Assembly: GCA_964620955.1 (NCBI GenBank) | Contig: CAZUKH010000001.1 | Coordinates: forward strand, 124,593 to 188,592 | Direction: 5' to 3' | DNA length: 64,000 nt | DNA from: an uncultured Candidatus Saccharibacteria bacterium | GTDB taxonomy: Bacteria > Patescibacteriota > Dojkabacteria > J137 | In this document: positions 1-24,392 of the stretch, one piece after another | How the letters are laid out: each line of letters opens with the position of its first letter | Position numbering within the stretch: the stretch's first letter is position 1 | Notes under the pieces: generated by a model | The model's database searches: none | What the model saw: the letters and a program-made list of their open reading frames with translations, nothing else | What the model was told of the DNA's origin: nothing | Made by a program: the position numbers and the translations under genes

Positions 1-638
1 AAGGAGCTTTCAACGTTAGAAGAATAAACTATAGGAGTAACATAAAAAACAAAAGACAAAAATACGCCAAATATTCTTGTAATATCTGGTGCAACTACAT
101 TAATTACAGAAAAGATAAGTCCAAGGCCTGCCCCAAGAAAAAATAGTGGCAAAATTACAATTGGGAAAAAAATAATCTGCCAAGGAATTACAACCCCAAA
201 TAGAATTAAAACTACAATGTTTAATACAAATGTTATTACAAAGTTTGCAAGGTGCTGCGCAACTTGTTTAACAAGTAAAACTTCATGTGGATATTTAACC
301 TGATTTATAAAACCAACCCCTGCCTCAAGAGTACCCTGAGCTGCCGTATAAAAACCCATGAATAATCCCCAAAGTGATGACCCTAGAAGAACATACGGTA
401 AATATGGTATGTCTATGTTACCCGGAGAAAGAATACCAGTAAGATTTAATAAAACCCAAGAAACTACACCTATTAGTGGAGAAATTAAAATCCAGCTAAA
501 CCCAATAAAGGATTTTTTATACGCCATTAAAAAATCACGACGAAATAGCTGCCAAATTAACTCTTTAGACTTAATAATGTTTTTGGCTATTACAACCCAG
601 GTTTTAAAAAAACCAATCTTTTGCCTTTCATTTGGCAT
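1..638 (-). CDS. ABC-2 type polysaccharide/teichoic-acid export permease (Wzm/TagG/KpsM-like), C-terminus truncated by the window edge
   Basis: Reverse-strand translation from the ATG at 636-638 gives MPNERQKIGFFKTWVVIAKNIIKSKELIWQLFRRDFLMAYKKSFIGFSWILISPLIG..., with multiple TM helices. The N-terminal ELIWQLxxRDxxxxYKxS motif is typical of ABC-2 permeases. The + strand ORF 358..642 is antisense to it. Confidence 0.7.
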   Translation of the reverse strand, partial: MPNERQKIGFFKTWVVIAKNIIKSKELIWQLFRRDFLMAYKKSFIGFSWILISPLIGVVSWVLLNLTGILSPGNIDIPYLPYVLLGSSLWGLFMGFYTAAQGTLEAGVGFINQVKYPHEVLLVKQVAQHLANFVITFVLNIVVLILFGVVIPWQIIFFPIVILPLFFLGAGLGLIFSVINVVAPDITRIFGVFLSFVFYVTPIVYSSNVESS

Positions 639-695
639 GTAGATTGTATATTCGTCCATAAATATGCTTGTTTTACAACTAAAATTATAACATCG

Positions 696-1688
696 TTAAG
701 ATTCGTTCATTTCAAACAACGTTTTTACAAGTTGGTTTCCTTTAATAGTTGCCTTCCAACCTGTCGCCTTTAAAAGTTTATCAGTTTTTATTTGTATACT
801 ACTAACATCTGATGGTCTATAAAACTCTTTTGATACCTGTACTAATTTTTTCCCATTTTTTTTATTAATGGCATTTTCGTTTACGCCTTGCTCTCTCCAT
901 TCAATATCCACCTCAACTTCGTTAAAAGCAAATTCTATAAATTTTCTTAAGCTAAAGGTAAGCCCTGTTGCAACAATGTAGTCGTCAGGTTTTTTTAGCC
1001 GCATAATTTCGTATGCTGCTTGTACAAATTCTTGGGCATATCCCCAATCTCTCTCGACATTTAGGTTTCCAACCATTAGTGGATCAATACTTTGATCTAG
1101 CGCATAAGCTTTTACGTAGTCAATGATTTTCTTTGTAATAAATTTTGAGTCACGAAGGTGAGACTCATGATTACTAAAAATTGCATTGGAAACAAATATT
1201 CCTAAAGATTGGCGAACAGCTCTGGTATACAAGTACGCAGATGTTTTTGATATAGCGTAAGGGTTTCCTGGATTTAACGGGAAACTTTCATCAATAAAAT
1301 CACCCGAACAATCCCCGTAAATTTCTACAGACGATGCTTGAAGTAACTTTATGTTTTTCCCATTGCAGAGTTGTAGCAAGTCAATAAGTTGCATTAAATT
1401 TATTTCGAATGTTTCTTTGGGTATTTCCCAGCTTTTACCAACACTTGATTGGCCTGCCAAGTTATATATTTGAAGTCCATCTTGCAATATCCTGGGCAAT
1501 TCGGCTTTAGTTACTTTAACTATTTGTGACTCATTTATACTTAGTTTTGAAAAATTATCGAAGTTATCAAATGCCGAATTGCCCACGAGCAAACCATAAA
1601 CTCTGTATCCTTTTTCCAAGAGTAGTTTAGTTAAAAAAGCTCCATCCTGACCCGTAATTCCTGTTATTAAAGCTGATTTATTTGCCAT
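696..1688 (-). CDS. GDP-mannose 4,6-dehydratase paralog (short-chain dehydrogenase/reductase, SDR, superfamily; possibly the reductase/bifunctional partner)
   Basis: N-terminus [14 protein letters not shown] (Gmd hallmark), [9 protein letters not shown], YAISK (Y-x3-K). Divergent from the adjacent Gmd. Confidence 0.75.
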   Translation of the reverse strand: [330 protein letters not shown]

Positions 1689-1702
1689 TTTTATTAAGTT
1701 AG

Positions 1703-2722
1703 CTACTTTTCTGTTTTTCTAACCAATTCTCTGTCTGCTTCAACCATTATTCTTACAAGCTCATCAATATCTGTTTTTGGCTCCCAACCTAGTTTGTTTT
1801 TAGCCTTTGCACTATTTCCTCTTAAATACTTTAAGTCTGAAGGCCTCTTAAATCTATCATCCATTTGTACATGATTTGACCAGTCTTTAATACCAATTAC
1901 CGCAAAAGCTTTTGTAAGGAAATCTTCTATGCTGTAAGTGCTCCCAGTTGCAATTACAAAATCTTCCGGATTTTCTTGCTGAAGCATAAGCCACATCATT
2001 TCAACATAGTCTTTAGCAAAACCCCAATCTCTTTTGGAGTCAAGGTTCCCAAATTTCACAATCGAATCCTTTAACAAAGGTTCTTTTTCCTCGTTACAAA
2101 CTTTTGAAGTTTTTATACCTTCGGCAATACAAGCTACAGCATAAGATATTTTTCGTGTGACAAATTCATGGCCTCTTCTTGGCGACTCATGATTAAAAAG
2201 AATGCCCGAGCAGGCAAAAGTACCAAAACTTTCACGGTAATTTTGAGTCATATGATGTGCATAAAGTTTTGCAATTGCATAAGGGCTAGTAGGAATCATC
2301 TTTGTATTTTCATCTAAAAACTCTTCTGGGTTGTTGCCATACATCTCGCTCGAAGAAGCTTGATAAAATTTCGCATCAGGCTTATGGTTTCTTACAGCCT
2401 CAAGCATTCTTACTGCACCTAGTCCTGTAACTTCTGCAGTTAATATTGGTTGAGGCCAGCTTGACTTCACGAATGATTGGGCTGCAAGGTTATATACTTC
2501 GTTTGGCTGAAAATCTATAACTGCTCTATCCAAAGAACCTTGATCCAATAAATCCCCATCGTAGATTTTTACTTTTCCCCTAATTCCTTCAATATAGTGT
2601 GTGTTGGGTACGCTAAGTCTTCTTACAATTCCTGCCACCTCATAGCCTTTTGCTATTAAAAACTCTGCAAGGTAAGATCCATCCTGCCCTGTTATACCTG
2701 TTATAAGTGCTTTTTTTGACAT
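1703..2722 (-). CDS. gmd: GDP-mannose 4,6-dehydratase
   Basis: [50 protein letters not shown]. Canonical Gmd signatures. Confidence 0.9.
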   Translation of the reverse strand: [339 protein letters not shown]

Positions 2723-2825
2723 ATAGTAAATATTTAATCTTTTGAGCTACAATTTATCATCTAAACTAATTCCGCTCAACTTTTTAAATATTGTCAAAGA
2801 TAAAATCTCCAGCTAGAATGTAGGT

Positions 2826-5471
2826 ATGTATATTCAAAGACGATTTTTGTTATTAACTGTTATTCTCCTGACTATTGCAAGCTTTGCACTTGTGATTACT
2901 GGGCCTGCATATGCTCAGGAAGAGCCAACAAGCAGCCTCGATGTGACTTCTTTTCTTACAAGCCAAGAATTTAGTGTTGACATAAACCCTGATGCTCTAG
3001 CATATGCATTTGAGTGGAATAAAGGTGGTTATTTTGAGTTTAAGACGAATGGCTCTGTGAATGAATACGAACATATCGAAGAGATGACTGATGGGCCTGA
3101 GAACTTATCAAACAAATCCATATCGGAACTTTACTATATTAATGAAAGTGAAACACAAATATTTATTAAAAACTCTTCTGCATCGGAACTTAAAATAAAA
3201 TGGGTTTGGTTAACTCAGCCCCAAAAAGACAAGGGAGATCAAAGGATATCCTCAAATAACCTAACTAACCCTACCCACGTTAACCTGGATTCAGGCGCTA
3301 ATTATTCAACACTTCCGATTGTTTCACGAAGCATGTGGGGAGCCAACGAAGAATCCTCTTCTGTTTGGCCACCAGAGTATAAAGCAGTAGAAAGATTTAT
3401 TATTCATCATACAGTCATTACCAATTCCAACTTCATGACTGCAGTTCAGCTTATTTATAACTACCATACTTATACAAATGGATGGGGTGATATAGGCTAC
3501 AATTATTTAATTGACCCTAATGGGGTAATTTATGAAGGCAGGAAAGGTGGAGATAATGCTATAGGTGCGCATGCATATATGCAAAATGGACGCTCAATGG
3601 GTATTTCGTTTATTGGAGACTTTTCTTATGTTCTTCCATCTAATACTGCACTTGCAAGTTTTAGAAGTTTTATTGCCGAAAAGTCCATTTTGCATGGTAT
3701 ACCACTTGTTTGGGGGGAAACAGTTTTTGGCCATAGAGATATGCCGGAGAATTCGACAGCATGTCCTGGGAACGCCTTTTATGCAGCACTCCCAACAATT
3801 ATTTCCGAAGCAAATTCAGTTAGAGCCAATTTATCTTCCGGAACTTTGAGTCAGGCATATGCAAGTATGATTAACAATACTAATAATTACTACGATAACA
3901 GGTTAACTATTAAATTTGTGAATTCTCAATTAACTGAGAACGAAGCTTTAGCCTTACTCCCCAAAAACAGTGGCATTACTGATGTTGATTATGCTAATGG
4001 AGAAGCATTTATTACATTTGAAAGCTTTACATGGTATGGAGGCGAATACTTTGATGATACTCTAGATAGAGTAAAATTCGCCTATTTGATTTTTCTTTTA
4101 GACCCAAACATTCAAAGTATTGAACTAGCTCCTGAAGGGCCTTATGATTATGGAGATGCACCCGAAACCTATTCAACATCTACTGCATCACATTTAAGAA
4201 CAGCACAAAGCCCTTACTTTGGAAGCGGGGTTGATGGTGAAGAGTCTGCTTTGGTAGATACAGCTGCTACAGGAGATGATAATAGAAGAACCACAGCCCT
4301 TGCAGATGATGAAGATGGCGTAAGTTACACAGAGCTTAGAGGAGGGTTTACAGGTAATATAACTCTTTCGATTGGAGCTGCTGGGTATGTAAAGCTATGG
4401 GTAGATTTTGGCAATGATGGTACTTTTGCAGAGGCTTCAGACAAAGTATACGACGGCTACCTTGAAATAGGACTTCATGAAGTTGATGTAGCTGTACCTC
4501 AAACAATAAGCCAAGGAACCACATTTGCTAGAGCGAGAATAAGCAGTCAAAATACATTTAGTTACAATGATGCAGCTATTGATGGGGAGGTTGAAGATAT
4601 TAGAGTTTGGATTCATGAATGGTCAGACCTTTTTGACTCTGTGGGAAATACAAATCAGCCTGTTGCTACTCAAAAGTTTGGAGACAAATACTTCCAGGTG
4701 CTTTCGTCTAATACTTGGCCATACGTGATTTATGTTAGAAACTCAAGTGACGGACATAACTGGACTCAGTGGAGTGCTGAGTTAAACGGCTACAGTCACA
4801 GAGAACCATCACTAGCAATATTCCAGAATAGGCTTTATTTGTCGGTTTCAGGGACTGATAATAGAATTTATACCAAATCTATGGACATGGGTGGTACATG
4901 GGATAGCAAATGGGCCGAGACTGGCGGGACAACACTTGAAGGTGTTGGAATTGGAAGTGGGAACCTAAATGGTACAGAAATGCTTTTTCAAATAGTTAAG
5001 AGTAGTAACGATACAAATATTTACGTTCGACAAACTAAAGATGGAGTTTTTGATTACAATTCACCCGAAGAAAAGTGGAAAATCTTTGGAGGATTTACTA
5101 ATAAAAAGCCATCCTTATCTTCAATTAATGGAAAGTTAATTGCCACAGTAGCAGGTACGGATAGTAGAATTTACTTACGAACATCGATAGATGGTGTTAA
5201 CTGGTCTAACTGGGCTGAAAAGGGTGGGCTTACTTTTGAGGCGCCAGTAATTAGTTTAGAAAATAATCTTCTTTACCAAACTGTTAAAAGCATTGAAGAC
5301 AATTCTTTGTATTATAGGTCTACTTCCGACCTGCAAAACTGGACACCCTGGAAACAAATAAAAATCAACGCAGATAAGGCAGGGGCAATCATAATTTCTA
5401 ATAGCGTTCTTGGCATATACGTGCCTTCGGGCAGCTTGCTAAGGTATTCTACTTCGGTAAAATCTCTTTAG
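2826..5471 (+). CDS. Secreted multidomain protein: signal peptide + N-acetylmuramoyl-L-alanine amidase (PGRP/Amidase_2) + GEVED domain + BNR/sialidase-like beta-propeller repeats
   Basis: Signal peptide MYIQRRFLLLTVILLTIASFALVITGPAYAQ. Amidase_2 signatures: IIHHT, DIGYNYLIDPNGVIYEGR, GAHA, C-terminal ACPG. GEVED signature: YDYGDAPETY ... FGNDGTF. Repeated S-x-D-G-x-x-W motifs (SSDGHNWTQW, SMDMGGTWDSKW, SIDGVNWSNW, STSDLQNWTPW). Confidence 0.8.
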   Translation: MYIQRRFLLLTVILLTIASFALVITGPAYAQEEPTSSLDVTSFLTSQEFSVDINPDALAYAFEWNKGGYFEFKTNGSVNEYEHIEEMTDGPENLSNKSISELYYINESETQIFIKNSSASELKIKWVWLTQPQKDKGDQRISSNNLTNPTHVNLDSGANYSTLPIVSRSMWGANEESSSVWPPEYKAVERFIIHHTVITNSNFMTAVQLIYNYHTYTNGWGDIGYNYLIDPNGVIYEGRKGGDNAIGAHAYMQNGRSMGISFIGDFSYVLPSNTALASFRSFIAEKSILHGIPLVWGETVFGHRDMPENSTACPGNAFYAALPTIISEANSVRANLSSGTLSQAYASMINNTNNYYDNRLTIKFVNSQLTENEALALLPKNSGITDVDYANGEAFITFESFTWYGGEYFDDTLDRVKFAYLIFLLDPNIQSIELAPEGPYDYGDAPETYSTSTASHLRTAQSPYFGSGVDGEESALVDTAATGDDNRRTTALADDEDGVSYTELRGGFTGNITLSIGAAGYVKLWVDFGNDGTFAEASDKVYDGYLEIGLHEVDVAVPQTISQGTTFARARISSQNTFSYNDAAIDGEVEDIRVWIHEWSDLFDSVGNTNQPVATQKFGDKYFQVLSSNTWPYVIYVRNSSDGHNWTQWSAELNGYSHREPSLAIFQNRLYLSVSGTDNRIYTKSMDMGGTWDSKWAETGGTTLEGVGIGSGNLNGTEMLFQIVKSSNDTNIYVRQTKDGVFDYNSPEEKWKIFGGFTNKKPSLSSINGKLIATVAGTDSRIYLRTSIDGVNWSNWAEKGGLTFEAPVISLENNLLYQTVKSIEDNSLYYRSTSDLQNWTPWKQIKINADKAGAIIISNSVLGIYVPSGSLLRYSTSVKSL

Positions 5472-5979
5472 TAAATTTTTCCATACTTATAAAATCGTAG
5501 TAAGTATCGTTGATTTTAAGCTCCTTAGATAACTGCCCACATTTGTAAAACCCAAACTTTTCGTAAATGCTAATTGCTTTTTTTTGACTTGAAGTTACTG
5601 TTAAATTAACTTTTTCAATATGGCTTTCGTTTTTAATAATTTGAAGTGCTTTTTTTAAAAGCTTTATTGACATACCTTTACCTCTACTTTTAGGTTCTAC
5701 GTAAACCCATACTATTGTTGCTACATGTTTTTGCCGTGCTTTGGCTCCAAATAAAACACCTGTCATAGCAACTGGGTTTTTATTCTTATCAATACCAAAA
5801 AGCATAATTGAGTCTTTACCGAGCAAATAGTTTTGCAGGTAGTTTTGCCACCAGTAGTCAGATGCATGAAAATACTCTTCATAGCTTACAGTAAAAGCTT
5901 CGGGGTCAGTTTTTAAAGCTTTAAGCATAAACTCTTTTAAAGCAAAAAAATGAGAGCTGTTAACTTTAACAATTTTCAT
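5449..5979 (-). CDS. GNAT family N-acetyltransferase
   Basis: Acetyl-CoA binding motif (R/Q-x-x-G-x-G/A) around VEPKSRGKGMSIKLLKKAL. About 176 aa, typical GNAT size. TAATG overlap with the upstream GT4 gene. Confidence 0.75.
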   Translation of the reverse strand: MKIVKVNSSHFFALKEFMLKALKTDPEAFTVSYEEYFHASDYWWQNYLQNYLLGKDSIMLFGIDKNKNPVAMTGVLFGAKARQKHVATIVWVYVEPKSRGKGMSIKLLKKALQIIKNESHIEKVNLTVTSSQKKAISIYEKFGFYKCGQLSKELKINDTYYDFISMEKFTKEILPK

Positions 5980-7190
5980 TAGAGCTTGTTTTTTATATGA
6001 AAGCAGTCTTTAACGAGTGCTTCGTATCGTGGAAAAACAGCTTCCCAAGTAAATCTTTTGGCAAATTGAATATTGTTCTCCCTTATTTTTTGTAAATCAT
6101 TAAAGTTTGAAACAATTTCAATAATACATTGAGAAAGGGCTTTAATATCAGCGAAATTGTATGATTTCCCTGTCTTTTCTGTAATTAGCAAATCTACTGC
6201 TTCATTTTGATTAGTTGTAATTATTGCATTACCCTTCGCCATTGCTTCAAGTAAAACAATACCTGTTGCCTCCCATTTACTTGGCAAAATATTTATTTGC
6301 GATTCCTCGTAAAAAACTCTGTCGCGCTCTTCATCGCTTGGTGAATATATAAATTTTACCTTTTCTTCAAGATTTAATTGTTCTATCAAAGATTTTAGCT
6401 TTGCTGTGTAGCCTCCCGGTCTACCCATTATGTAAAATCTCAATGATTCAAAAATCTTGACTTGCTTCCTTCGAATTATTTCTAAAGCTTGCAATACATC
6501 TTGAATACCTTTGTACCACTCCATTCTGTTCATAAATGTTATTACAACTGGCTCATGCTTTAAATGTTCGTAGGGTTTTTGGGCAATGTACTCTTCATCA
6601 ATACCATTTGGTATAGTAAAGATCTTCTTTTCATCGATACCATAGTCTTTTGTCATCCAGTCTTTTTGCTTAGGAACAACTGCTACAATAACATCATATA
6701 TTTTTGGTATTAAAAACCGAAGAATGCGCGTGTAAAAGCTTTTTGCAAAACCTCTTAACCCCTTGGAATCGCCGAGCGCCATAAATGGTCCATGTGGGGT
6801 ATTTATAAATAGAGTTTTTTTTGCAAATAGCCTTTTTATTGATAAACATATTTCTACCCAAATAAATCCAAACCCCGACACATGAATAACATCAAACTTG
6901 CTGTTTAAAAGGCGTGTGAAAAGCCTGGGATAAACTCCCAAATATAAAGCCTCGTTAAACGCCCAATGCCTAATAATTTTTATTCCATTAAAATTTGCAT
7001 AAGGAGTTAATTTTTCATTACGGAACTTTATGTTTGTTGTATAAACCGTTACATCATGCCCTTGTTTTACCATTCTTCTTGCAAGGGCTAAAAAATTACT
7101 TTCAGCTCCGCCTTTAAATGGGTGAAATCGGGGGACTATATAAAGAACTTTGAGACTTGTGTTACTCTGGTTTTGTTGTGTGTTATTCAT
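5979..7190 (-). CDS. Glycosyltransferase family 4 (GT4)
   Basis: PRFHPFKGGAESNFLALARRMVKQGHDV near the N-terminus and EATGIVLLEAMAKGNAIITT (E-x7-E) near the C-terminus. Start placed at the internal MNNTQQ (7190) because the longer ORF to 7304 overlaps tatD. Confidence 0.75.
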   Translation of the reverse strand: MNNTQQNQSNTSLKVLYIVPRFHPFKGGAESNFLALARRMVKQGHDVTVYTTNIKFRNEKLTPYANFNGIKIIRHWAFNEALYLGVYPRLFTRLLNSKFDVIHVSGFGFIWVEICLSIKRLFAKKTLFINTPHGPFMALGDSKGLRGFAKSFYTRILRFLIPKIYDVIVAVVPKQKDWMTKDYGIDEKKIFTIPNGIDEEYIAQKPYEHLKHEPVVITFMNRMEWYKGIQDVLQALEIIRRKQVKIFESLRFYIMGRPGGYTAKLKSLIEQLNLEEKVKFIYSPSDEERDRVFYEESQINILPSKWEATGIVLLEAMAKGNAIITTNQNEAVDLLITEKTGKSYNFADIKALSQCIIEIVSNFNDLQKIRENNIQFAKRFTWEAVFPRYEALVKDCFHIKNKL

Positions 7191-8025
7191 CTTTTGAATG
7201 ATACTGCAGAAAGCCCATTGATTCAAATATGTCAGACACATTTGCAGGTTCGTTTGTAGTGCCTCGTTTTCCTTCTGGGGCAAGATATGGAGAGTCTGTT
7301 TCAAAATAAATATTTGATCTGTAGTAGTCTTCTGGTGTCGATAATTTCTTGCCAGTCAAAATTTTTTTGTATGTCTGCCTTAACTCTAAAGCATTTTTAA
7401 AAGTGATTATGCCATTTATTCCCAATCCCCACCCTGCGTCAAGAATCTTTACTGCTGTATTGTAATCTCCGGTGTAAGAATGAAAAACTCCTTTTGTATT
7501 ATATTTTTTTACTACTCTTAAACACTCTTCTTCGGCACCTCTAGAATGTATAGTTAACGGCAAATTTAATTCGGATGCTAGCTCAAGCTGAATCTCAAAA
7601 AGACGTTTTTGAAGTAGTTTTGATTTATTTTTAAATTCTGAAGATAAGTCTGAGTTATTTAACCAGTAGTAATCTAAGCCAGTTTCACCAATTCCAATTA
7701 CTTTTGAGCGGTTTTGTAGAATAATTTTTTTTAGAGATTCATAAGATTGTTGTAACATTTCATCTAAATCTAAGCCCATGAATAGTTCTGACCCTGGAAT
7801 GAAAACTTCAGGATCTATACCTATAAAACTTTTTACAATTTCAGATTCTATTGACATTGATTGTGTTGAAGTTTTTAAATTCACAGAAACATTCCAAATT
7901 TGTGATATATTTTTTGCTTTTGCTTTCGCAATCTGACTTTGAAGAATTTCTGGTGACTCGAAGGGCAAATGACAATGTGAATCTATTAGTCCTACGGGAT
8001 TCTTGAGTAGTTTGTATAAATCCAT
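7183..8025 (-). CDS. tatD: TatD family metal-dependent hydrolase/DNase
   Basis: IDSHCHL, GIGETGLDYYW, HSRGAEEE, HSYTGD, ETDSPYLAP. Conserved TatD motifs. Confidence 0.85.
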   Translation of the reverse strand: MDLYKLLKNPVGLIDSHCHLPFESPEILQSQIAKAKAKNISQIWNVSVNLKTSTQSMSIESEIVKSFIGIDPEVFIPGSELFMGLDLDEMLQQSYESLKKIILQNRSKVIGIGETGLDYYWLNNSDLSSEFKNKSKLLQKRLFEIQLELASELNLPLTIHSRGAEEECLRVVKKYNTKGVFHSYTGDYNTAVKILDAGWGLGINGIITFKNALELRQTYKKILTGKKLSTPEDYYRSNIYFETDSPYLAPEGKRGTTNEPANVSDIFESMGFLQYHSKDE

Positions 8026-9931: not shown

Positions 9932-11482
9932 ATGAATAGTAAAAATCTGGGTGATTTATCTAAAATTGTTGTTGCTCAAATAAAATCCAAGCGTAAACAC
10001 GAAAATGCCGATAGGCTGAATATAGTTGAAATTGACGCCGGGCAGTCAAACGACTCTGCTTTGCTTAATGAAAATGGGTTTATTCAAGTAGTAACAGCAG
10101 CCAACAACTTTGAGGTTAATGATCTTGTTGCATGGGCAGCTCCAGGTTGCTCTGTGCCAGGGTGGGTAGCAAAAGGAGACAATATAGTTTTAGAATCAAG
10201 AGATATGCGTGGACAAATATCACATGGGATGATATTAGCTGAAGATGAACTGGGAATAGGTAAAGATCACGAAGGTATATTTGTAATTGATAAAAAACAC
10301 ACTAATCTTATTGGAAGTTCTGTTTCTAAAGTGCAAAGTTTGCTAAGCAAACCTAACGACCAAGACATATTACAAGATCTTAAAAAAGTTACTACCGAGA
10401 TACTTGGTGCCGAAGATCTTTTGCAGCTATTGTCAACTGAATCAAAACTTAATCATTATATTGGGTTTGAAATTTCTGGTCTTGTTCATCTTGGGCAAGG
10501 ACTAATGAGTGGAATTGTAATAAGAGAGCTTCAAAAACTTGGGATTAATACAAGAATTTTCCTTGCAGACTGGCACACCTGGATTAACAATAAGCTTAAA
10601 GGAGATATGGAATTTATTCAAAAAGTTGCTTCAGAATATTTTATACCTGCAATGAAATCCGCAATAAGCATCGCAGGAGGAAATGCAGATGCTGTCGAAT
10701 TTATATTGGGTTCCAACCTGTACCATAATAATGATAAATACTGGCAAACAGTTGTAGATATAAGCAAAAATCTCACGCTTTCACGTGTACTAAAATCTAC
10801 AACCATTTTGGGACGGGAGAGTTCACAAAGTATGGAGTTTGCAATGTTAATTTACCCTTCGATGCAAGCGGCAGATATTTTTGAAATGCAAAACCATATT
10901 GCGCACGCGGGTACCGACCAAAGAAATGTACATGTCATTGCAAGAGAAGTAGCCTCGAAAATAACTGTTCAAAAACTTATGGTTAATAACAATTCTATAA
11001 AGCCTATTTCTATACATCACGAACTAGTACCAGGGTTACAAAAGCCCTCAGAATGGCCATTGCCAAAGAATATTTCAAAACATGACATGCTTACAAGTCT
11101 TAAGATGAGTAAATCTATACCCGACTCGGCAATATTTATTCAAGATGATGTGGAAGAAATTAAAAGAAAAATTAACCAGGCATTTTGTCCTGAAAAAGAA
11201 ATCGGTTACAACCCAGTTCTTTCATGGGTCAGACTTCTCATTTTCCCAATAAATAATAAATTTGAACTTAAAAGAGAAGCTCGATATGGGGGAGATAGAA
11301 TTTACAAGAATTATAGCGAGCTTGAATCTGACTATGCTAATGGTACTGTGTTCCCACTTGATTTAAAAAATAATGTGGCAGAAACACTGATTAAAATGCT
11401 ACAACCTGCACGTGATGTTTTTAATAGTGCAGAAAAGAAAATGATTATTCAGGAAATTTTAGCAGTAAGGAAAACCCGTTAA
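9932..11482 (+). CDS. Class I aminoacyl-tRNA synthetase of the Tyr/Trp subfamily (likely archaeal/eukaryotic-type tyrosyl-tRNA synthetase) with an N-terminal Myf/Trbp111-type tRNA-binding OB domain
   Basis: N-terminal ~130 aa: KIVVAQIKSKRKHENADRLNIVEIDAGQ...GMILAEDELGIG (tRNA-binding domain). Then GFEISGLVHLGQG (HIGH-equivalent, G-F/Y-E-P-S-G pattern), YPSMQAADI and KMSKS. Confidence 0.7.
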   Translation: MNSKNLGDLSKIVVAQIKSKRKHENADRLNIVEIDAGQSNDSALLNENGFIQVVTAANNFEVNDLVAWAAPGCSVPGWVAKGDNIVLESRDMRGQISHGMILAEDELGIGKDHEGIFVIDKKHTNLIGSSVSKVQSLLSKPNDQDILQDLKKVTTEILGAEDLLQLLSTESKLNHYIGFEISGLVHLGQGLMSGIVIRELQKLGINTRIFLADWHTWINNKLKGDMEFIQKVASEYFIPAMKSAISIAGGNADAVEFILGSNLYHNNDKYWQTVVDISKNLTLSRVLKSTTILGRESSQSMEFAMLIYPSMQAADIFEMQNHIAHAGTDQRNVHVIAREVASKITVQKLMVNNNSIKPISIHHELVPGLQKPSEWPLPKNISKHDMLTSLKMSKSIPDSAIFIQDDVEEIKRKINQAFCPEKEIGYNPVLSWVRLLIFPINNKFELKREARYGGDRIYKNYSELESDYANGTVFPLDLKNNVAETLIKMLQPARDVFNSAEKKMIIQEILAVRKTR

Positions 11483-11487
11483 CTTAA

Positions 11488-12051
11488 TCAGTTACTCAAT
11501 ATTGTATCTACTTTGTAAACAACTCCGTTAGAAGCTTCAACTCCAGTAGAAACAACCTTAGACACCAAGTCGTTAAGCTCTAAGTTAATTTCTCCATTTA
11601 TAATACGTACAGTAATGACATTACCATTAAGAGTAGTTATTTCCTGACCATCAGTCAAGCTTTCCGGAGGGAAAAACCCCCAAACAATATGACTTTGTAA
11701 AATACCTTGAATTTTATCCTGAGTTGAGGCTTCTCCTTGGATATTAAAAAATGCCTGGTTATCGGGAGCAAATACTGTATACATTTCAGAGTTTTCAAGG
11801 GCAGTTGAAACTCCTGATTCTGTTAGATTTTTATAAAAATTACTTAATAATGAATCTTTACTAATTATTACTAATAGATTTTGCAACCCTTCTACTGGGC
11901 GCTGCAAGTTTGTTGGTGAGTCTGCTTCATTTGCACTTTTTGGCGTATCTTGATTAGAAAGCACATAAATTGCACCTAGCGCTATGCCTGCAAATGCAAT
12001 GAGGGCAACGAAAATTGGGATGTAACTTCTCCCGTTAGTCTTATTCATCAA
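11488..12051 (-). CDS. Fasciclin (FAS1) domain protein, membrane-anchored
   Basis: N-terminal TM. TVFAPDNQAFFNI and NGVVYKVDTIL are FAS1 H1/H2 motifs. Confidence 0.8.
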   Translation of the reverse strand: MMNKTNGRSYIPIFVALIAFAGIALGAIYVLSNQDTPKSANEADSPTNLQRPVEGLQNLLVIISKDSLLSNFYKNLTESGVSTALENSEMYTVFAPDNQAFFNIQGEASTQDKIQGILQSHIVWGFFPPESLTDGQEITTLNGNVITVRIINGEINLELNDLVSKVVSTGVEASNGVVYKVDTILSN

Positions 12052-13106: not shown

Positions 13107-14168
13107 ATGCAAATTCTAGGTGTATCGACAAAAGATCAAGAAGAAGCGGTAAATATTTTAGCTAAAGGAGGTCTTGTTATTTACCCAACTGAAACTGCAT
13201 ACGGCGCAGGTGTTGATGCTACAAATAAATTAGCAGTGGGTAAACTCCTCGAGTTTAAAAAACGCCCTACTGGTAAAGCAATATCAATTGCTTGTAGCTC
13301 ATATAGCATGGCCCAAAGTTATGTAATAATAAATAAAGCAGCTGACAATTTGTATAAAGAATTTCTTCCGGGGCCTCTTACTATTGTATCTTTTTCTAAA
13401 AATAAAGTAGATAAACGTCTTGAGTCTGAGGATAGCACTTTGGGTGTAAGAATCCCGAATAATGAATTTGCGCTAGGAATGATTGAGAAACTTAAAAGGC
13501 CCGTTACTGCTACATCTGCAAACTCTTTCGGTAACGCCACTCCTTACTCAATAGAATCCATACTTGAAAATTTAACTGAAAAACAAAAGTCTATTGTAGA
13601 TTTAATAATTGATGCGGGGCATCTTCCAAAAAGGTTGACTTCAACAGTTGTTGATACAACAAGAAATACATTAAGAACTTTTCGCAAAGGAGCTATTAAG
13701 TTTGGATCTAATAAACCTCAAAAAGTAATTGTTAGTAAAAATGTTGAAGAAACACTAAACCTAGCCGAAATACTCACCAAAAACTTACTAAGCGATGGTT
13801 TTAATAACATTGTTTATCTATTATCTGGGGAGCTAGGTGCGGGCAAAACACATTTTGCGAAAGGGGTGGCAAAAGCCTTAGGGGTAAACGCAGTAGTTAA
13901 ATCTCCTACTTATGGATATGTGTCTGAATATAAAATACCTTATTCAACTCAAAAGTTTATACATGTTGACGCCTGGAAAATCGTTAATAAAAGAGAACTC
14001 GAAGCGCTAGGCCTTAATAATTTGATTAAAACTTCAAAGGTTGTGGTTATCGAATGGCCTGAAGTAATTGAAAATCTTGATAAAGACTTTTTTAATAAGT
14101 TTAAACCAATTGCAGTGTATATTGACTCGATTGATGAGCAAACAAGAAAAATGAGTATTTTCCAATAA
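13107..14168 (+). CDS. Fusion protein: L-threonylcarbamoyladenylate synthase TsaC/YrdC domain + tRNA t6A biosynthesis ATPase TsaE (YjeE) domain
   Basis: N-terminal: LAKGGLVIYPTETAYGAGVDATN...LLEFKKRP (YrdC/Sua5). C-terminal: LLSGELGAGKTHFAKGVAKALGV..KSPTYGYVSEY...HVDAWKI...IEWPE (TsaE P-loop). Confidence 0.8.
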   Translation: MQILGVSTKDQEEAVNILAKGGLVIYPTETAYGAGVDATNKLAVGKLLEFKKRPTGKAISIACSSYSMAQSYVIINKAADNLYKEFLPGPLTIVSFSKNKVDKRLESEDSTLGVRIPNNEFALGMIEKLKRPVTATSANSFGNATPYSIESILENLTEKQKSIVDLIIDAGHLPKRLTSTVVDTTRNTLRTFRKGAIKFGSNKPQKVIVSKNVEETLNLAEILTKNLLSDGFNNIVYLLSGELGAGKTHFAKGVAKALGVNAVVKSPTYGYVSEYKIPYSTQKFIHVDAWKIVNKRELEALGLNNLIKTSKVVVIEWPEVIENLDKDFFNKFKPIAVYIDSIDEQTRKMSIFQ

Positions 14169-19691: not shown

Positions 19692-22600
19692 TTGTTTTTG
19701 CGTTTTTTAAATAAAACAATACGGCTCAAAGAATGGCAGCTGGATATTTTTTCAGCTTTTGTTTTGCTGGGTGGTATTTTCGCTGGCGTAATTCTTGCTG
19801 TTGCAGGTTTAATTCCATTAATTAATGCTGATGTTACTAATTTAATTACGCTTACCTCAGATGCATCGTTTAACACTGGTAGTTATGCTAGTACAAATAT
19901 AACCGGAGCGGGAGATGGTGCCTCTGTACAGTTAACACCTGGCGGCGCTGGATGGCTTGACCCAGCATGGACTTACCGACGGGATATTACAATTAACAAC
20001 CCTAATACTTCTACTCTAACTGAGTACCAGGTACTTATTACTCTTAATACTAGTAACTTTAATTATGCAAATGTTCAAAATGATTGTGATGATATTCGTT
20101 TTGCCAATAATGCTGGCCAACTTTTAAGCCATTATCAGCTTGTGTGTAATACAAGCGGTGTAAGTCAATTTTGGGTTAAAGTAGATTCACTTGCAGCAAG
20201 TTCCGATACTACAATACAGGTTTATTTCGGCAATGCTTCCGCAACTAGCGGTTCAAACGAAGTGGCAACCTTTTCATACTCATCAGCTAAAACTGTTGGT
20301 TATATAATAAATGACAGGGTTAATGAAGCATCAGTAATCAGTCTTATTGCAAATAATCAAATTATTCATAATTCACAAACTTTTAATCTTAATGAATATG
20401 AAACTAATTACTTTCCTTTAGTTAACAGAAGTTTACCAATACAAGCTAAAGGATTATTTAATTTTAAAGATCCTGATACAGATAATGATACATTTGTACC
20501 GGTTTCATTTGCAGGTACAAACTTTAGATTTACAACAAGAGAAAGTGGAACAGATACCGAAGATTTTTGGATGATTAGTCCATGGGGTAGTGCTACAGTA
20601 ACAATAGCCGGTGATGGCGGGGCAGCATGCCAAACACTTACAGTTACAGGCACAGCTGCGGTTAACGGGTCTGGCTGTAATTTAGCAGCGGGTATTACTT
20701 TTAAAATAACCAGTACAATACCAATTCTTGTTTTTTACGACGGGAATGCTAATCAAATTTCTCCAATTATGCCAGTTGAAAATGGACCATGGTACGGAGT
20801 GCCAAGCAGGACTCTAATGATTTCAGCAGCCGATAGTGGAGCAAACACAACTTACTTTAGATCCGACAACGCAAATGCTTACAATAATGCAATTGCAGCA
20901 AACAGGGATTTAACCCAAGCTACAGCATACGCGTCTTATGCTTCGGGACCCGCACTAAAAATAACAGGAGATAACCCAATTTTTGCATCAGCATGGAACG
21001 ATGGTAACGGGAATGACGGCGTGTCATTTATGCCTTGGAATAAACTTGGCACGCGATTTGGAGGTGCAACTGTTGTTGACTATATAGCTATTGCCTCACC
21101 CTACCCTGCTACTTGCCGTGTTTACAATGCATTAACTCAAACTCTAGTCGCAAGTGGTACAGCATCATCATTAAATTCAGAAGTTTATATGCTTGGGTTT
21201 GGTACTGGAAATTCTAATACTTATGTTAACGGTCCGTGGTATGTTGATTGTGACAAGCCTGTGTACCTTTACGCTGAAATGTCTGCAGACGCAGAAACGC
21301 AAGTTTATACATATGAGCAAATGAGGCAGTTTGTTTACCCAACGCCTGCAATGAATTCAACACTTGGTAACGAAGAAGGCTCAATTCCTGGAAGCGGCAC
21401 ATGGGAATCAGCAGGAAATCAAAATGCAATAGATTTAAAGTGGAATGGAGGATGGGGAGATGGCACTGGAACATCAGTGGGTTTTGAAGCAAGTGTTTCT
21501 AATGTAGGAGCAAATGCAAATATTGCATTTCAAATTAGGGCAGCATCTAGCCTGGCCAACTTAACATCAACAAGCTATCAAACTTTAGGCGTAGCAAGTT
21601 CAGGTACCAGTTTTACAGTTACTAAAGATGAGCTTGACACTCTTGGCGTACCTACTGGTTTAAATGGTAGGTACATTCAAATTAAAGCAACACTCAACTC
21701 AATTGATGGTTTTATAAACCCAGTACTTGAAAGTTTTGGGGTAAGATACCAAGCTGATAACTCAGGTCCATCTGTAAACGCTTCGGGAATTCAGCTCTTT
21801 AAAAGTTCAACTGGCGGTGAAGTCACAACAGACAACTGGCTTAATAATATTGCTCCATACTTTTCATGGAGTGAAGGCTCAGATACACAATCTGAAATTG
21901 GTGGGTTTTGCTTGTACATAGGAAACGATATTAATGGTGACCCTGCAATTACTGAGGGTATTTTGGGTGATAGTGGTTTTAGCGTACCTGGTGCAGACTG
22001 CCCTTTTCAAATAGAAACACCTTATATTGATTTTGCTACAACTGCTTTTAGAGGAAGCCAATGGCTTGAATCTGACACAATAAAGTACTATATGAAGGTT
22101 AAGTCAATCGACCGGGCAGGGAACGAATATCTTGGAACTGCAGCTTCATTTAGCTTTTACTATGATGATACGCCACCTACAACTCCATTCTTCATTTCTT
22201 TACCTTCGGGATTTGTTTCTTCAAAAGAAGTTACTATAACCTGGCCAACAGTAGGAAACGAGCGGGCTAAAGATGACCATTCACAGCTTGCTGGCTTGCA
22301 GTACAGAATAGGAAATAATGGTGTGTGGTATGGAGATTTGCATAATGGAGCTGAAAATCAAACTGACTTATTAGTTAATGATGGACATTACGTTACAATT
22401 GACCCTTATGATTTTGATGCGCTAAGCCAAGAGGTTAACTTGATTTACTTTAGGAGTTGGGATAACGCTGGAAATATATCTACTGCAACAGTTAGCGGAA
22501 CAATAAAGATTAACTCTAATGCACCAAGTAGCCCACAAAATCTTACAGTCACGCCATTAACCAATACAGTAAACTCCTATGCTTTTGAATGGGACCCACC

Positions 22601-24392
22601 TAGTAGTTATACCGGCCTTTTGAGTGGAATTACTTATTGTTACACTGTTAACACATTACCTTCGGCAGGTACCTGTATTTTTACAGGGCCAGGTGTAACA
22701 AACCTTGCTGCAGATGCATATGCTAACCTTCCAACAACTAATACACTTTACCTAGTAGCTAAAGATGAAGCTGGAAACATTAATTACTCAACATATACCC
22801 AGGTAGATTTTACGTATACAGGAACCGCTCCTGGTATTCCGCGTAATATTGAAGTTACAGATATTTCAATAAAAGATACTGCAAACTGGAGACTTTCTGT
22901 AACTTGGGAAATTCCCGAAAATATTGGTGCTGGTGTGAGCTCATATAAAATTTATAGATCTACCCAAGACTTAAGCTGTACAAACGATATTGAATCTTTT
23001 AGCCTTATTGATACTATTAAGGGTTCTACCTTTTACGCAAATACTGGTTTAAGCCAACAAACTTACTATTACTGCCTTAGAGCTTGTGATTCGGCAAACA
23101 ACTGCTCTGCTCCTTCTGAAGTTGCATCTGGATTTCCTGACGGAAGATTTACTAGCCCAGCTGAATTAATTTCAGGGCCAACTATAACAAACCTTTCTAC
23201 TCGCAGAGCAACTATAAACTGGGTAACAGTTCGAGGTTCCGATTCAAAAGTAGCATATGGAATTGCTCCTGACACATATTTTGAAGAAGAGCCATCAACT
23301 TCTACCCAGGTAAACGACCACGTTATAAACCTTTCGGGCTTACAGCCAGGAACCACCTACTACTACAGAGCAAAATGGACCGATGAAGATGGTAATACAG
23401 GAATAAGCCCTGAAAAATCTTTTACTACAGACCCTGCTCCTGTAATTAGAGATGTTTCGGTGGCAAGAGTTGGATTAGACAATGCTGTAATTAGGTTTAC
23501 AGCAAGAGGTGCTTATGGAGTTCAGCTTCGTTATGGGCTTACCACAAGTTTTGGTGGAGCTATTGAAATTGACTCTTCACCTGTTGAAAGCACTTACACT
23601 GCAATAATCGAAAATTTGCAAGACGGCACAAATTACTTTTACACAATCAACCCTTTTGATGGTGAAGGATTTACATACGAAGGAACTGTTTTAAATTTTG
23701 CAACTCTTCCAAGACCTCAAATAACAAATGTAGATATTGAAGAACAAAAAGGAAATGCACAACCTACAATAAAAATTACCTGGGAAACAAATACCCCTAC
23801 AAACTCAATTGCTACTTACTTTCCTGTAACTAACCCTGCATTTACTCGAGATCAAGTAGATATTAATTTAAAAGATGGTAAACATGAAATGACTTTAGCC
23901 GGACTGGAAGCAGAAACAACTTACAACCTGATTGTGAAAGCAGTTGATGCTTTTGGTAACCAGGCACAATCAGATACTATTAGCTTTACAACTGCAACAG
24001 ACAGCAGACCACCAGAAATTTTTAATTTAAAAGTAGAAGGCACTATTACTAACTTTTCGGAAAGTAGCACTGGCTCCGACCAGCAAAAAGCACAACTTAT
24101 TGTTTCGTGGGATACTGATGAACCTGCAACAAGTCAAGTAGAGTTTGGACAAGGAAGTGCCTCAGTTTATACACAAAAAACACAACAAGATCAAAATCTT
24201 ACTTTCAACCATTTAGTTGTAATTTCAAACCTTACACCTTCGCAGGTTTATAGCCTTCGAGTGATTTCTGCTGATAGCGCTGGCAATGAGGGTTTGTCGG
24301 ACAATTCTGTTACTATAACTCCTAAGGTTGTAAGTTCAGCTTTAGACTTAGTGTTTTCAAATCTACTTGAAATATTTGGTTTTTTGCGATGA
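19692..24392 (+). CDS. Giant (1566 aa) membrane-anchored surface protein: N-terminal TM, DUF2341 domain, long array of Fn3-like / purple-acid-phosphatase-N-like beta-sandwich repeats
   Basis: TTG start. TM segment FSAFVLLGGIFAGVILAVAGLI. DUF2341 signatures: WxYRRDITINN...DCDDIRFANNAGQLLSHYQL...FWVKVDSL...IQVYFGN. Repeated TxxW..., GTTYYYR and YY-rich beta-sandwich motifs. Low-complexity S/T/G/N-rich linkers. Confidence 0.7.
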   Translation: MFLRFLNKTIRLKEWQLDIFSAFVLLGGIFAGVILAVAGLIPLINADVTNLITLTSDASFNTGSYASTNITGAGDGASVQLTPGGAGWLDPAWTYRRDITINNPNTSTLTEYQVLITLNTSNFNYANVQNDCDDIRFANNAGQLLSHYQLVCNTSGVSQFWVKVDSLAASSDTTIQVYFGNASATSGSNEVATFSYSSAKTVGYIINDRVNEASVISLIANNQIIHNSQTFNLNEYETNYFPLVNRSLPIQAKGLFNFKDPDTDNDTFVPVSFAGTNFRFTTRESGTDTEDFWMISPWGSATVTIAGDGGAACQTLTVTGTAAVNGSGCNLAAGITFKITSTIPILVFYDGNANQISPIMPVENGPWYGVPSRTLMISAADSGANTTYFRSDNANAYNNAIAANRDLTQATAYASYASGPALKITGDNPIFASAWNDGNGNDGVSFMPWNKLGTRFGGATVVDYIAIASPYPATCRVYNALTQTLVASGTASSLNSEVYMLGFGTGNSNTYVNGPWYVDCDKPVYLYAEMSADAETQVYTYEQMRQFVYPTPAMNSTLGNEEGSIPGSGTWESAGNQNAIDLKWNGGWGDGTGTSVGFEASVSNVGANANIAFQIRAASSLANLTSTSYQTLGVASSGTSFTVTKDELDTLGVPTGLNGRYIQIKATLNSIDGFINPVLESFGVRYQADNSGPSVNASGIQLFKSSTGGEVTTDNWLNNIAPYFSWSEGSDTQSEIGGFCLYIGNDINGDPAITEGILGDSGFSVPGADCPFQIETPYIDFATTAFRGSQWLESDTIKYYMKVKSIDRAGNEYLGTAASFSFYYDDTPPTTPFFISLPSGFVSSKEVTITWPTVGNERAKDDHSQLAGLQYRIGNNGVWYGDLHNGAENQTDLLVNDGHYVTIDPYDFDALSQEVNLIYFRSWDNAGNISTATVSGTIKINSNAPSSPQNLTVTPLTNTVNSYAFEWDPPSSYTGLLSGITYCYTVNTLPSAGTCIFTGPGVTNLAADAYANLPTTNTLYLVAKDEAGNINYSTYTQVDFTYTGTAPGIPRNIEVTDISIKDTANWRLSVTWEIPENIGAGVSSYKIYRSTQDLSCTNDIESFSLIDTIKGSTFYANTGLSQQTYYYCLRACDSANNCSAPSEVASGFPDGRFTSPAELISGPTITNLSTRRATINWVTVRGSDSKVAYGIAPDTYFEEEPSTSTQVNDHVINLSGLQPGTTYYYRAKWTDEDGNTGISPEKSFTTDPAPVIRDVSVARVGLDNAVIRFTARGAYGVQLRYGLTTSFGGAIEIDSSPVESTYTAIIENLQDGTNYFYTINPFDGEGFTYEGTVLNFATLPRPQITNVDIEEQKGNAQPTIKITWETNTPTNSIATYFPVTNPAFTRDQVDINLKDGKHEMTLAGLEAETTYNLIVKAVDAFGNQAQSDTISFTTATDSRPPEIFNLKVEGTITNFSESSTGSDQQKAQLIVSWDTDEPATSQVEFGQGSASVYTQKTQQDQNLTFNHLVVISNLTPSQVYSLRVISADSAGNEGLSDNSVTITPKVVSSALDLVFSNLLEIFGFLR

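Follow-up and report, generated by a model that had tools for sequence, protein, structure and literature searches.

A predicted secreted zinc amidase of a Dojkabacteria genome joins a GEVED-type domain to a PLL-type lectin propeller

We analyzed a 64-kb stretch of the genome of an uncultured bacterium (contig CAZUKH010000001.1, positions 124,593 to 188,592; 64,000 nucleotides, here called the window) and in it a gene for a signal-peptide protein, hereafter the amidase protein. A peptidoglycan amidase domain of the Amidase_2/PGRP type, its catalytic residues intact by alignment, is followed in this protein by a GEVED-type domain and by a C-terminal beta-propeller related to the Photorhabdus lectins PLL and PHL. 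The RpoB protein encoded in the window was 79% identical to RpoB proteins named Candidatus Dojkabacteria, and nearly every named match came from that group of the candidate phyla radiation (CPR), or Patescibacteria. We interpret the protein as a zinc amidase docked through a lectin, with the general design of a Gram-positive autolysin. Its propeller would bind a glycopolymer containing 6-deoxy- or O-methyl-hexoses, likeliest the producer's own, and the enzyme would serve wall remodelling or cell separation. Judged from sequence, we give this reading a probability of about 0.5, the part that concerns the architecture being far more secure than the assignment to the producer's own wall.

The open reading frame (ORF) had been noticed in a preliminary description of the stretch, which a model made from the letters and a list of ORFs; its call of a single signal-peptide ORF was recovered with exactly the same coordinates (Table 1). 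By inspection, the N terminus is that of a Sec substrate: MYIQRR, with QRR as the n-region, is followed by a hydrophobic core of 18 residues and by PAYA/QEE, with cleavage predicted after A30, and a lipobox Cys is absent. Other members of the amidase family have comparable hydrophobic N termini, and secretion of the protein is predicted. The mature form would contain 851 amino acids (~94 kDa; isoelectric point, 4.6). An identical protein (P0001) has been recorded from an NCBI contig, and at 90% identity the protein forms a singleton cluster.

Pfam Amidase_2 (PF01510) matched residues 186 to 316 with 57.9 bits against a gathering cutoff of 26, covering positions 3 to 131 of the 131-position model. 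All of the motifs quoted in the preliminary description in support of the same assignment were located (HHT at 194, DIGYN at 222, GAH at 247, and ACPG at 312). The closest solved relatives of the domain are amphioxus PGRP3 (E, 3.6e-24) and Drosophila PGRP-LB (E, 3.5e-17), and the domain has the alpha/beta fold of PGRPs and T7 lysozyme. The zinc-binding His/His/Cys set, which had been singled out for checking, is complete: H194, H303, and C313 align with T7 lysozyme residues H17, H122, and C130 and are invariant across 15 family members. Y225 (T7 Y46) is likewise invariant in the family, and T311, which aligns with T7 K128, is kept in at least 90% of the members. The catalytic residues are intact as far as the alignment goes, and enzymatic activity is predicted. 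Compared with the catalytic PGRP and T7-lysozyme amidases (PGRP-LB, PGRP3, and T7 gp3.5), the domain is here one part of a 94-kDa secreted bacterial multidomain protein, with lineage-specific domains on both sides (N-terminal and ferredoxin-like), neither of which matched any library.

These flanking domains were delineated in a model of the core of the protein computed with AlphaFold2 (AF2) from alignment A2 (predicted local distance difference test [pLDDT], 79; predicted template modelling score [pTM], 0.80), whereas the propeller was modelled from its single sequence. A composite full-length alignment that combined the core homologs with GEVED and propeller fragments was dropped, the GEVED pieces being scattered over residues 213 to 833. 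The N-terminal beta-sandwich, in which the family alignment shows conserved W and S residues, is followed by a disordered linker (residues 131 to 148). No Pfam family was found in the N-terminal domain of any of 14 members. In profile comparisons, it weakly resembled the CBM32 domain of Clostridium perfringens NagH; since only NagH-derived chains appeared, at E values of 0.09 to 0.22, and no Pfam match was obtained, an identity as CBM32 (F5_F8_type_C) is kept only as a weak lead. The helix pair and the ferredoxin-like domain that follow the amidase occur throughout the family, and both would pack against the amidase domain according to the prediction.

The GEVED domain proposed earlier was confirmed above threshold, with Pfam GEVED (PF20009) matching residues 521 to 591 (38.3 bits against a cutoff of 24.4) and the literal GEVED motif at residue 587. 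The GEVED unit comprises ~145 amino acids and occurs as tandem copies in KSB1 and Holophagales proteins. GEVED domains were defined in CshA-type fibrillar adhesins, where they are associated with the stalk and precede the stalk repeats (PMC10952558). As in those adhesins, the domain has a functional head on one side and a distal module on the other, which would suit a stalk or spacer (PMC10952558), a role that we consider likely. Unlike them, the amidase protein has no CshA_NR2 ligand-binding domain, repeat stalk, or wall anchor, and a single GEVED domain is fused to an enzyme. No other case of GEVED together with Amidase_2 was found among the retrieved proteins.

A single-repeat hidden Markov model (HMM) identified five C-terminal repeats of ~45 amino acids (independent E values, 1e-6 to 4e-18), in which two blade subtypes alternate and the hairpins carry an Asp-box-like SxDGxxWxxW motif. 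The AF2 model of residues 597 to 881 is all-beta and has about six four-stranded blades (pLDDT, 67.8; pTM, 0.71), in agreement with the propeller fold that the preliminary description had proposed to confirm by AlphaFold. The propeller would be closed by a degenerate sixth blade formed by residues 847 to 881, where the model has strands with a pLDDT below 50 and the repeat HMM gave no match. When the model was compared with the PDB by Foldseek, the best matches were PLL5, PLL2, PHL, and PLL (E, 1.4e-9 to 3.5e-8; TM score, ~0.65), and Kelch domains and sialidases followed at ~1e-6 (sialidase 1eut; E, 1.3e-6), the sialidases being about 1,000-fold worse than the PLLs. A fold search of BFVD returned only generic propellers of phage tail proteins. 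A profile built from 19 propeller domains, including that of the amidase protein (A6), matched eight of 177,635 distinct PDB sequences, all of them PLL/PHL proteins, with E values from 2.9e-60 (PLL) to 3.1e-32 (PHL, 3.1e-58), and no sialidase at an E of ≤10. BLASTP aligned the amidase protein with PHL residues 90 to 247 (E, 2e-7) with the repeats in register, and hhalign gave 98.8%. This PHL fragment is recognized by Pfam as DUF346 (55.3 bits). DUF346 (PF03984) gave no match to the amidase C terminus at an E of ≤10, no Pfam repeat model recognized the propeller, and the NCBIfam scan of the protein returned no match to its C terminus.

The C-terminal region had been described previously as a series of BNR repeats forming a sialidase-like propeller, and here the description did not hold. 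No BNR family of Pfam was detected at an E of ≤1 with the whole protein or at an E of ≤10 with the C terminus, and the sole Pfam match in the region was Neuraminidase-like (PF18413), which scored 14.8 to 14.9 bits against a cutoff of 25. The strict S-x-D-x-G-x-x-W motif occurs once (SMDMGGTW at 685); the other Asp-box-like sites are either one residue short (SSDGHNW at 640 and SIDGVNW at 787) or lack the Gly (DLQNW at 835). The BNR assignment fails because the HMM scores are below threshold, and a BNR/Asp-box propeller of the sialidase type (PF02012 or PF13088) was rejected on these scores, on the single motif, and on the lack of any sialidase among the PDB matches of the profile. By profile and by model, the propeller belongs to the PLL/DUF346 lectin family and not to the sialidase family. 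Like the BNR/Asp-box sialidase propellers, it has a beta-propeller fold and an Asp-box-like motif in the hairpin between strands C and D. "Asp-box-like" is a fair term for this hairpin because a few distant relatives of the repeat family score on BNR_2, including the giant relative P0121 at 73.6 bits, although the family membership is still that of the PLL lectins. Among 70 propeller relatives scanned, DUF6242 matched 16, DUF346 matched 5, and BNR_2 matched 4. The repeat consensus of the PLL-type family is FNxxLYQxxRGxDNxIYTRxSxDGxxWxxWxxxGGxTxxxP. The amidase propeller also differs from the known lectins. The PLLs are stand-alone gamma-proteobacterial lectins with seven blades, whereas the propeller described here is a C-terminal module with five HMM repeats plus a degenerate one and about six modelled blades. 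In addition, it is the amidase propeller, unlike PLL and PHL, that carries the Asp-box-like SxDGxxW in its C-D hairpin.

The ligands of the Photorhabdus PLL/PHL lectins are fucose, rhamnose, and O-methylated sugars, which occupy aromatic pockets formed between the blades. The fucose site of PHL consists of Thr194, Trp199, and Trp214 (PMC5584973). These residues align with the T, the Y, and the second W, respectively, of GTDxRIY...NWxxW in the amidase propeller. At the aligned positions, blades 2 and 4 have Thr, Tyr, and Trp, and blades 1 and 5 have an aromatic residue and Trp. In this form (Thr, an aromatic residue, and Trp), the amidase propeller keeps the hydrophobic fucose/O-methyl-sugar pocket positions of PLL and PHL, and from this likeness we predict that it binds sugars of this class.

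The core of the protein (N-terminal, amidase, and ferredoxin-like domains) is shared, at 31% to 43% identity, with proteins of 500 to 870 amino acids, and those relatives that carry source names are from Dojkabacteria or Patescibacteria. After the core, some relatives end; in others, an Ig-like domain is followed by DUF5648 repeats, by FG-GAP repeats, or, in P0002, by a PLL-type propeller. By these comparisons, the core represents a lineage family with variable C-terminal modules. The propeller belongs to a large family. A word-indexed homolog search with the C-terminal 285 amino acids returned no matches, not even the protein itself, and a HMMER search was needed; when exhaustive, it collected 1,479 representatives (at 50% identity) of the PLL-type repeat family at an E of ≤1e-3, 57 of them at ≤1e-30. 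Among the 70 members scanned, the propeller was fused to Peptidase_M23 in 10, to S8 in 9, and to CHAP in 5, and also to PA14, lipases, CAP, and others. One such fusion is the S8 subtilase P0147, which very probably belongs to the genome of the window; two or more secreted enzymes of this genome, the amidase and this subtilase, would then carry a PLL-type propeller. In two metagenome-assembled genomes (MAGs), one from Dojkabacteria (L006) and one labelled Saccharibacteria (L002), a short core amidase divergently adjoins an S8 subtilase that ends in a propeller, and in P0238 Amidase_2, S8, and the propeller are combined in one polypeptide.

The subtilases of the two divergent pairs (L002, 5498..7519; L006, 4795..7482; both on the minus strand) have an N-terminal propeptide-like region and very regular PLL-type repeats of 49 amino acids, which in L002 contain a run of masked residues (X). 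A chain of 1,178 amino acids consisting of Amidase_2, Peptidase_S8, and a PLL-type propeller is encoded at positions 102..3638 of a 10.9-kb locus (L087; Logan SRR29333043); downstream of it, in the same orientation, are five uncharacterized genes for proteins of 226 to 402 amino acids and a sixth that is cut off where the locus ends.

The amidase gene diverges from a group of genes on the minus strand (1..2722) that would constitute a GDP-6-deoxyhexose and glycopolymer-export locus and that we tentatively link to the function of the amidase on the basis of neighborhood. The Gmd paralog and Gmd scored 274.6 and 387.3 bits, respectively, with Pfam GDP_Man_Dehyd, and the top NCBIfam model for both was gmd (246 and 375 bits), under its cutoff of 415. 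Genes for ManC, GT2, and GtrA are present elsewhere in the window. D-rhamnan loci of the Pseudomonas aeruginosa common polysaccharide antigen type consist of gmd, an rmd-like paralog, wzm/wzt, and GT4 genes, a likeness that serves as a lead and not as a test. Neighbors for the synthesis or export of wall glycans were found in the window and at three of six related loci: (i) in L084, a 1.13-Mb contig with the FG-GAP ortholog, two GDP_Man_Dehyd-family genes, a NUDIX gene, and a GT4 gene are located directly upstream and another GT4 gene downstream, and the Gmd is 45% identical to that of the window and has the same orientation; (ii) in L081, after the gene for ortholog P0002 come genes for Wzm, for two Wzt proteins that have Wzt_C domains, and for GtrA and GT2; and (iii) in L082, an ABC-2 transporter and ManC are nearby. 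The window otherwise contains ordinary chromosomal genes (rpoBC, IF-2, S7, RodA/FtsW, several aminoacyl-tRNA synthetases, deformylase, and RecJ), and the G+C content of the amidase gene is not atypical for it. Among the neighbors of the amidase gene in the window, there is no immunity-like, phage, holin, or secretion-system gene. No tRNA, transfer-messenger RNA, or Rfam family reached the gathering threshold in the 64-kb window, although it includes the rpoBC and S7 region, and in the window there is thus no such element to hint at an integration site.

Taken as a mechanism, the preferred reading of a lectin-docked amidase would run as follows. The protein would be a modular peptidoglycan hydrolase exported by the Sec pathway of a Dojkabacteria cell. 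With zinc held by H194, H303, and C313 and the active site completed by Y225 and T311, it would hydrolyze the amide linkage that joins the stem peptide, through its L-alanine, to N-acetylmuramic acid. The acidic GEVED-type domain would space the amidase from the five- to six-bladed propeller, which would probably dock the enzyme multivalently on a wall glycopolymer bearing 6-deoxy- or O-methyl-hexoses, this polymer being a candidate product of the adjoining Gmd/Gmd-paralog/Wzm-like/GT4 locus. Docking would concentrate the amidase on the wall, in the manner of the choline-binding or CWB2 repeats of Gram-positive autolysins. The target would most likely be the wall of the producer, with the enzyme splitting the septum, turning over the wall, or making room for envelope structures. 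Modular autolysins with shared anchoring repeats are known from Gram-positive bacteria, such as pneumococcal LytA with the other choline-binding proteins and the CWB2/Cwp family of Clostridioides difficile. By analogy to the LytA type, the amidase protein would combine a secreted catalytic domain with a repeat module common to other secreted enzymes; unlike in the LytA and CWB2 autolysins, the anchor is a lectin beta-propeller and not a solenoid or a CWB2 trimer.

In the preliminary description, the protein was called cell-wall targeting, which is reasonable because an intact Amidase_2/PGRP amidase, a GEVED domain, and a propeller of a carbohydrate-binding type are joined in one signal-peptide protein. 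The further step, that this architecture indicates a foreign wall and not housekeeping autolysis, does not follow, because autolysins show the same architecture, which does not discriminate between the two. The comparative evidence leans somewhat the opposite way, since the gene is a member of a conserved chromosomal family of Dojkabacteria, adjoins genes for the synthesis or export of the producer's wall glycans in the window and at three of six related loci, and has no visible immunity-like partner or phage context. The sequence itself does not tell own wall from host wall, and it is from such comparisons that we infer whose wall would be cut.

Several points weigh against assigning the enzyme to the producer's wall or against the predicted ligand: (i) in contrast to PHL, the stacking Trp is replaced by Tyr, and the polar residues of the galactose site, including a Glu, are not conserved; (ii) related loci L083 and L085 have no wall-glycan neighbors, and the assignment to the producer's wall rests on neighborhood, the rest being analogy; (iii) the swapping of C-terminal modules among orthologs (PLL type, DUF5648, FG-GAP, or none) is also what adaptation to a host range would produce; (iv) the link to subtilases, adjacent and divergent in L002 and L006 and fused in P0238, could represent a digestive toolkit; and (v) a lectin for 6-deoxyhexoses would fit the wall of a host equally well, because all cultivated CPR bacteria live as episymbionts and the attachment of the saccharibacterium TM7x tracks the rhamnose and fucose content of the host wall (PMC11623550).

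The last three of these points also speak for the explanation suggested in the preliminary description, a lytic or scavenging enzyme directed against a host or prey. Here, the propeller would dock on a host wall polysaccharide rich in rhamnose, fucose, or O-methyl sugars, and the amidase, together with the propeller-tagged subtilase, would open or digest the host envelope and feed a precursor-lacking cell with amino acids and wall precursors. All cultivated CPR bacteria are obligate episymbionts, and the genome is a Dojkabacteria/CPR genome; the amidase and the S8 protease have the propeller in common; the GEVED domain derives from fibrillar adhesins; and the PLL/PHL lectins themselves act on foreign surfaces. 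However, in addition to the nondiscriminating architecture, the wall of a monoderm producer would itself be exposed to a Sec-secreted amidase, yet the gene is flanked by Gmd and GNAT genes and by nothing immunity-like. Moreover, it is a conserved chromosomal family gene within the envelope-glycan loci of the cell itself, and Dojkabacteria have no known host. We regard this explanation, the main rival, as possible, if on the unlikely side. A wider version of it, held still more tentatively, is that the PLL-type propeller is a hitherto unrecognized module that targets secreted hydrolases of Dojkabacteria and other bacteria (the amidase, S8 subtilases, M23 and CHAP hydrolases, and the single amidase-S8-propeller chain) to surface glycans, that in these episymbionts it binds host wall polysaccharides rich in 6-deoxyhexoses or O-methyl sugars, and that the amidase-protease pair breaches and harvests the host envelope. 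If true, it would open a molecular approach to host choice and host exploitation by uncultivated CPR bacteria.

Less probable again is a nonlytic amidase that trims or scavenges muropeptides, comparable to PGRP-LB or AmiD. Such an enzyme would act mainly on soluble or shed peptidoglycan fragments, either its own or those of environmental necromass, and free stem peptides and amino sugars for uptake, while the lectin and the beta-sandwich would hold it on particulate glycan debris or on the cell surface. The nearest solved relatives are indeed catalytic PGRPs of the scavenger type (PGRP-LB and PGRP3), with Thr at the position of T7 K128; the family co-occurs with a secreted protease; and CPR genomes generally lack amino acid biosynthesis (reviewed in PMC13293708). 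However, fragment-specific and sacculus-active Amidase_2 enzymes cannot be separated by sequence, no peptide or amino-sugar transporter gene adjoins the amidase gene, and multivalent docking by a lectin suits an insoluble substrate.

The two remaining explanations are very improbable, one because of gene context and the other because of the intact active site. A prophage endolysin was rejected, as was an amidase that serves as the toxin of an antibacterial system, contact-dependent or secreted: the neighbors (Gmd, its paralog, GNAT, GT4, TatD, and housekeeping genes) include nothing of phage, holin, secretion-system, or immunity type, the protein carries a predicted Sec signal peptide of its own, the orthologs occupy nonphage chromosomal positions in several genomes, and the G+C content is unremarkable. 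A catalytically silent peptidoglycan-recognition adhesin, like the noncatalytic animal PGRPs, would fit the PGRP fold as well as the lectin domain and the GEVED domain of adhesin type, but noncatalytic PGRPs typically lose the ligand Cys, whereas here the full set of zinc ligands is kept, together with the catalytic Tyr, without variation across the family.

The chemistry of such an enzyme and the general modular design are known, modular peptidoglycan amidases being routine. New, as far as our literature search reached, are the combination of the family-specific core with GEVED and a PLL-type propeller and the use of this propeller as a shared targeting module of peptidoglycan hydrolases and proteases. 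The PLL-homologous propeller, of which this branch is covered by no Pfam model, marks a large family (~1,500 representatives at 50% identity) on amidase, M23, CHAP, subtilase, and other secreted enzymes. We know of no account of the wall biology or host interactions of the Dojkabacteria, an uncultivated CPR group. An intact amidase, a lectin with a predictable class of ligands, and an adjoining GDP-6-deoxyhexose/ABC-exporter locus would together offer an experimental entry to the surface biology of these bacteria, and the propeller could be used as a probe for partners in enrichments.

Table 1. Features of the amidase gene, its product, and its neighbors in the window
Feature	Coordinates	Strand	Remarks
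Partial ABC-2 (Wzm/TagG-like) permease	<1..659	-	Matches ABC2_membrane genes beside orthologs in L081 and L082
Gmd paralog, possible GDP-4-keto-6-deoxymannose reductase	696..1688	-	Pfam GDP_Man_Dehyd
GDP-mannose 4,6-dehydratase (Gmd)	1703..2722	-	Pfam GDP_Man_Dehyd
Sigma-70-like promoter match, TTGTCA-17-TAGAAT	2791..2819	+	10 of 12 matches; top site within 2500-6100
Amidase coding sequence, complete, 881 amino acids	2826..5471	+	ATG start; position exactly as in the preliminary description
Predicted Sec-type signal peptide, residues 1-30	2826..2915	+	By inspection of the sequence
N-terminal beta-sandwich specific to the amidase family, residues ~45-127	2958..3206	+	AF2: seven strands, pLDDT ~80
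Amidase_2/PGRP-type zinc N-acetylmuramoyl-L-alanine amidase domain, residues ~151-320	3276..3785	+	Pfam
Catalytic codons	H194, 3405-3407; Y225, 3498-3500; H303, 3732-3734; T311, 3756-3758; C313, 3762-3764	+
Two long helices (~316-352), then ferredoxin/RRM-like alpha-beta domain (~359-434)	3771..4127	+	AF2 core model
GEVED-type domain, residues ~441-598	4146..4619	+	Acidic DYGDAP...DDEDGV N-terminal part and Pfam GEVED at 521-591
Five PLL/PHL-lectin-type repeats, residues 607-649, 652-693, 698-741, 755-796, and 798-842	4644..5351	+
Degenerate C-terminal segment, residues 847-881	5364..5468	+	Putative closing sixth blade, as modelled
GNAT acetyltransferase	5449..5979	-	Convergent; overlaps the amidase 3' end by 23 nt
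GT4 glycosyltransferase	5979..7304	-	Listed TTG start (7304) overlaps TatD (7183..8025) by 122 nt

Upstream of the amidase gene, the promoter match is weak evidence because the number of promoter-like sites in the scan of positions 2500 to 6100 was no higher than in shuffled sequence (12 versus 11.2). Its -10 element stops 6 nt upstream of the ATG, and the start is not preceded by a Shine-Dalgarno sequence at a suitable distance; from these two observations, the transcript may be leaderless or near-leaderless. The TTG start listed for the GT4 gene is probably too far upstream, the ORF being overextended. A small secreted or membrane-anchored fasciclin-domain protein, a candidate surface or adhesion protein, is encoded near the amidase at 11488..12051 (minus strand).

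Other domain combinations were noted in the window. A class I tRNA synthetase of the tyrosyl/tryptophanyl type (tRNA-synt_1b) with an N-terminal tRNA_bind (EMAP/Trbp111-like) domain is encoded at 9932..11482 (plus strand); archaeal-type TyrRS/TrpRS identities are reported for some CPR bacteria (PMC5370408). The ORF at 13107..14168 (plus strand) fuses Sua5/YrdC (TsaC) and TsaE, two components of t6A tRNA modification, in a single chain, and the same fusion is found in L081 (70..1146; 46% identity). A protein of 1,566 amino acids with DUF2341, Pur_ac_phosph_N, and fibronectin-III domains (19692..24392, plus strand) is followed, with a 4-nt overlap of the genes, by a single-chain MacB-type transporter consisting of an ABC ATPase, MacB_PCD, and an FtsX permease (24389..26854, plus strand), and the two may represent a giant surface protein with its dedicated exporter. 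Finally, an SLOG/LOG-like domain (LDcluster4, Lysine_decarbox) is fused to an S-adenosylmethionine methyltransferase at 48604..49890 (minus strand), and a fusion with 58% identity is present in another Dojkabacteria MAG (L061).

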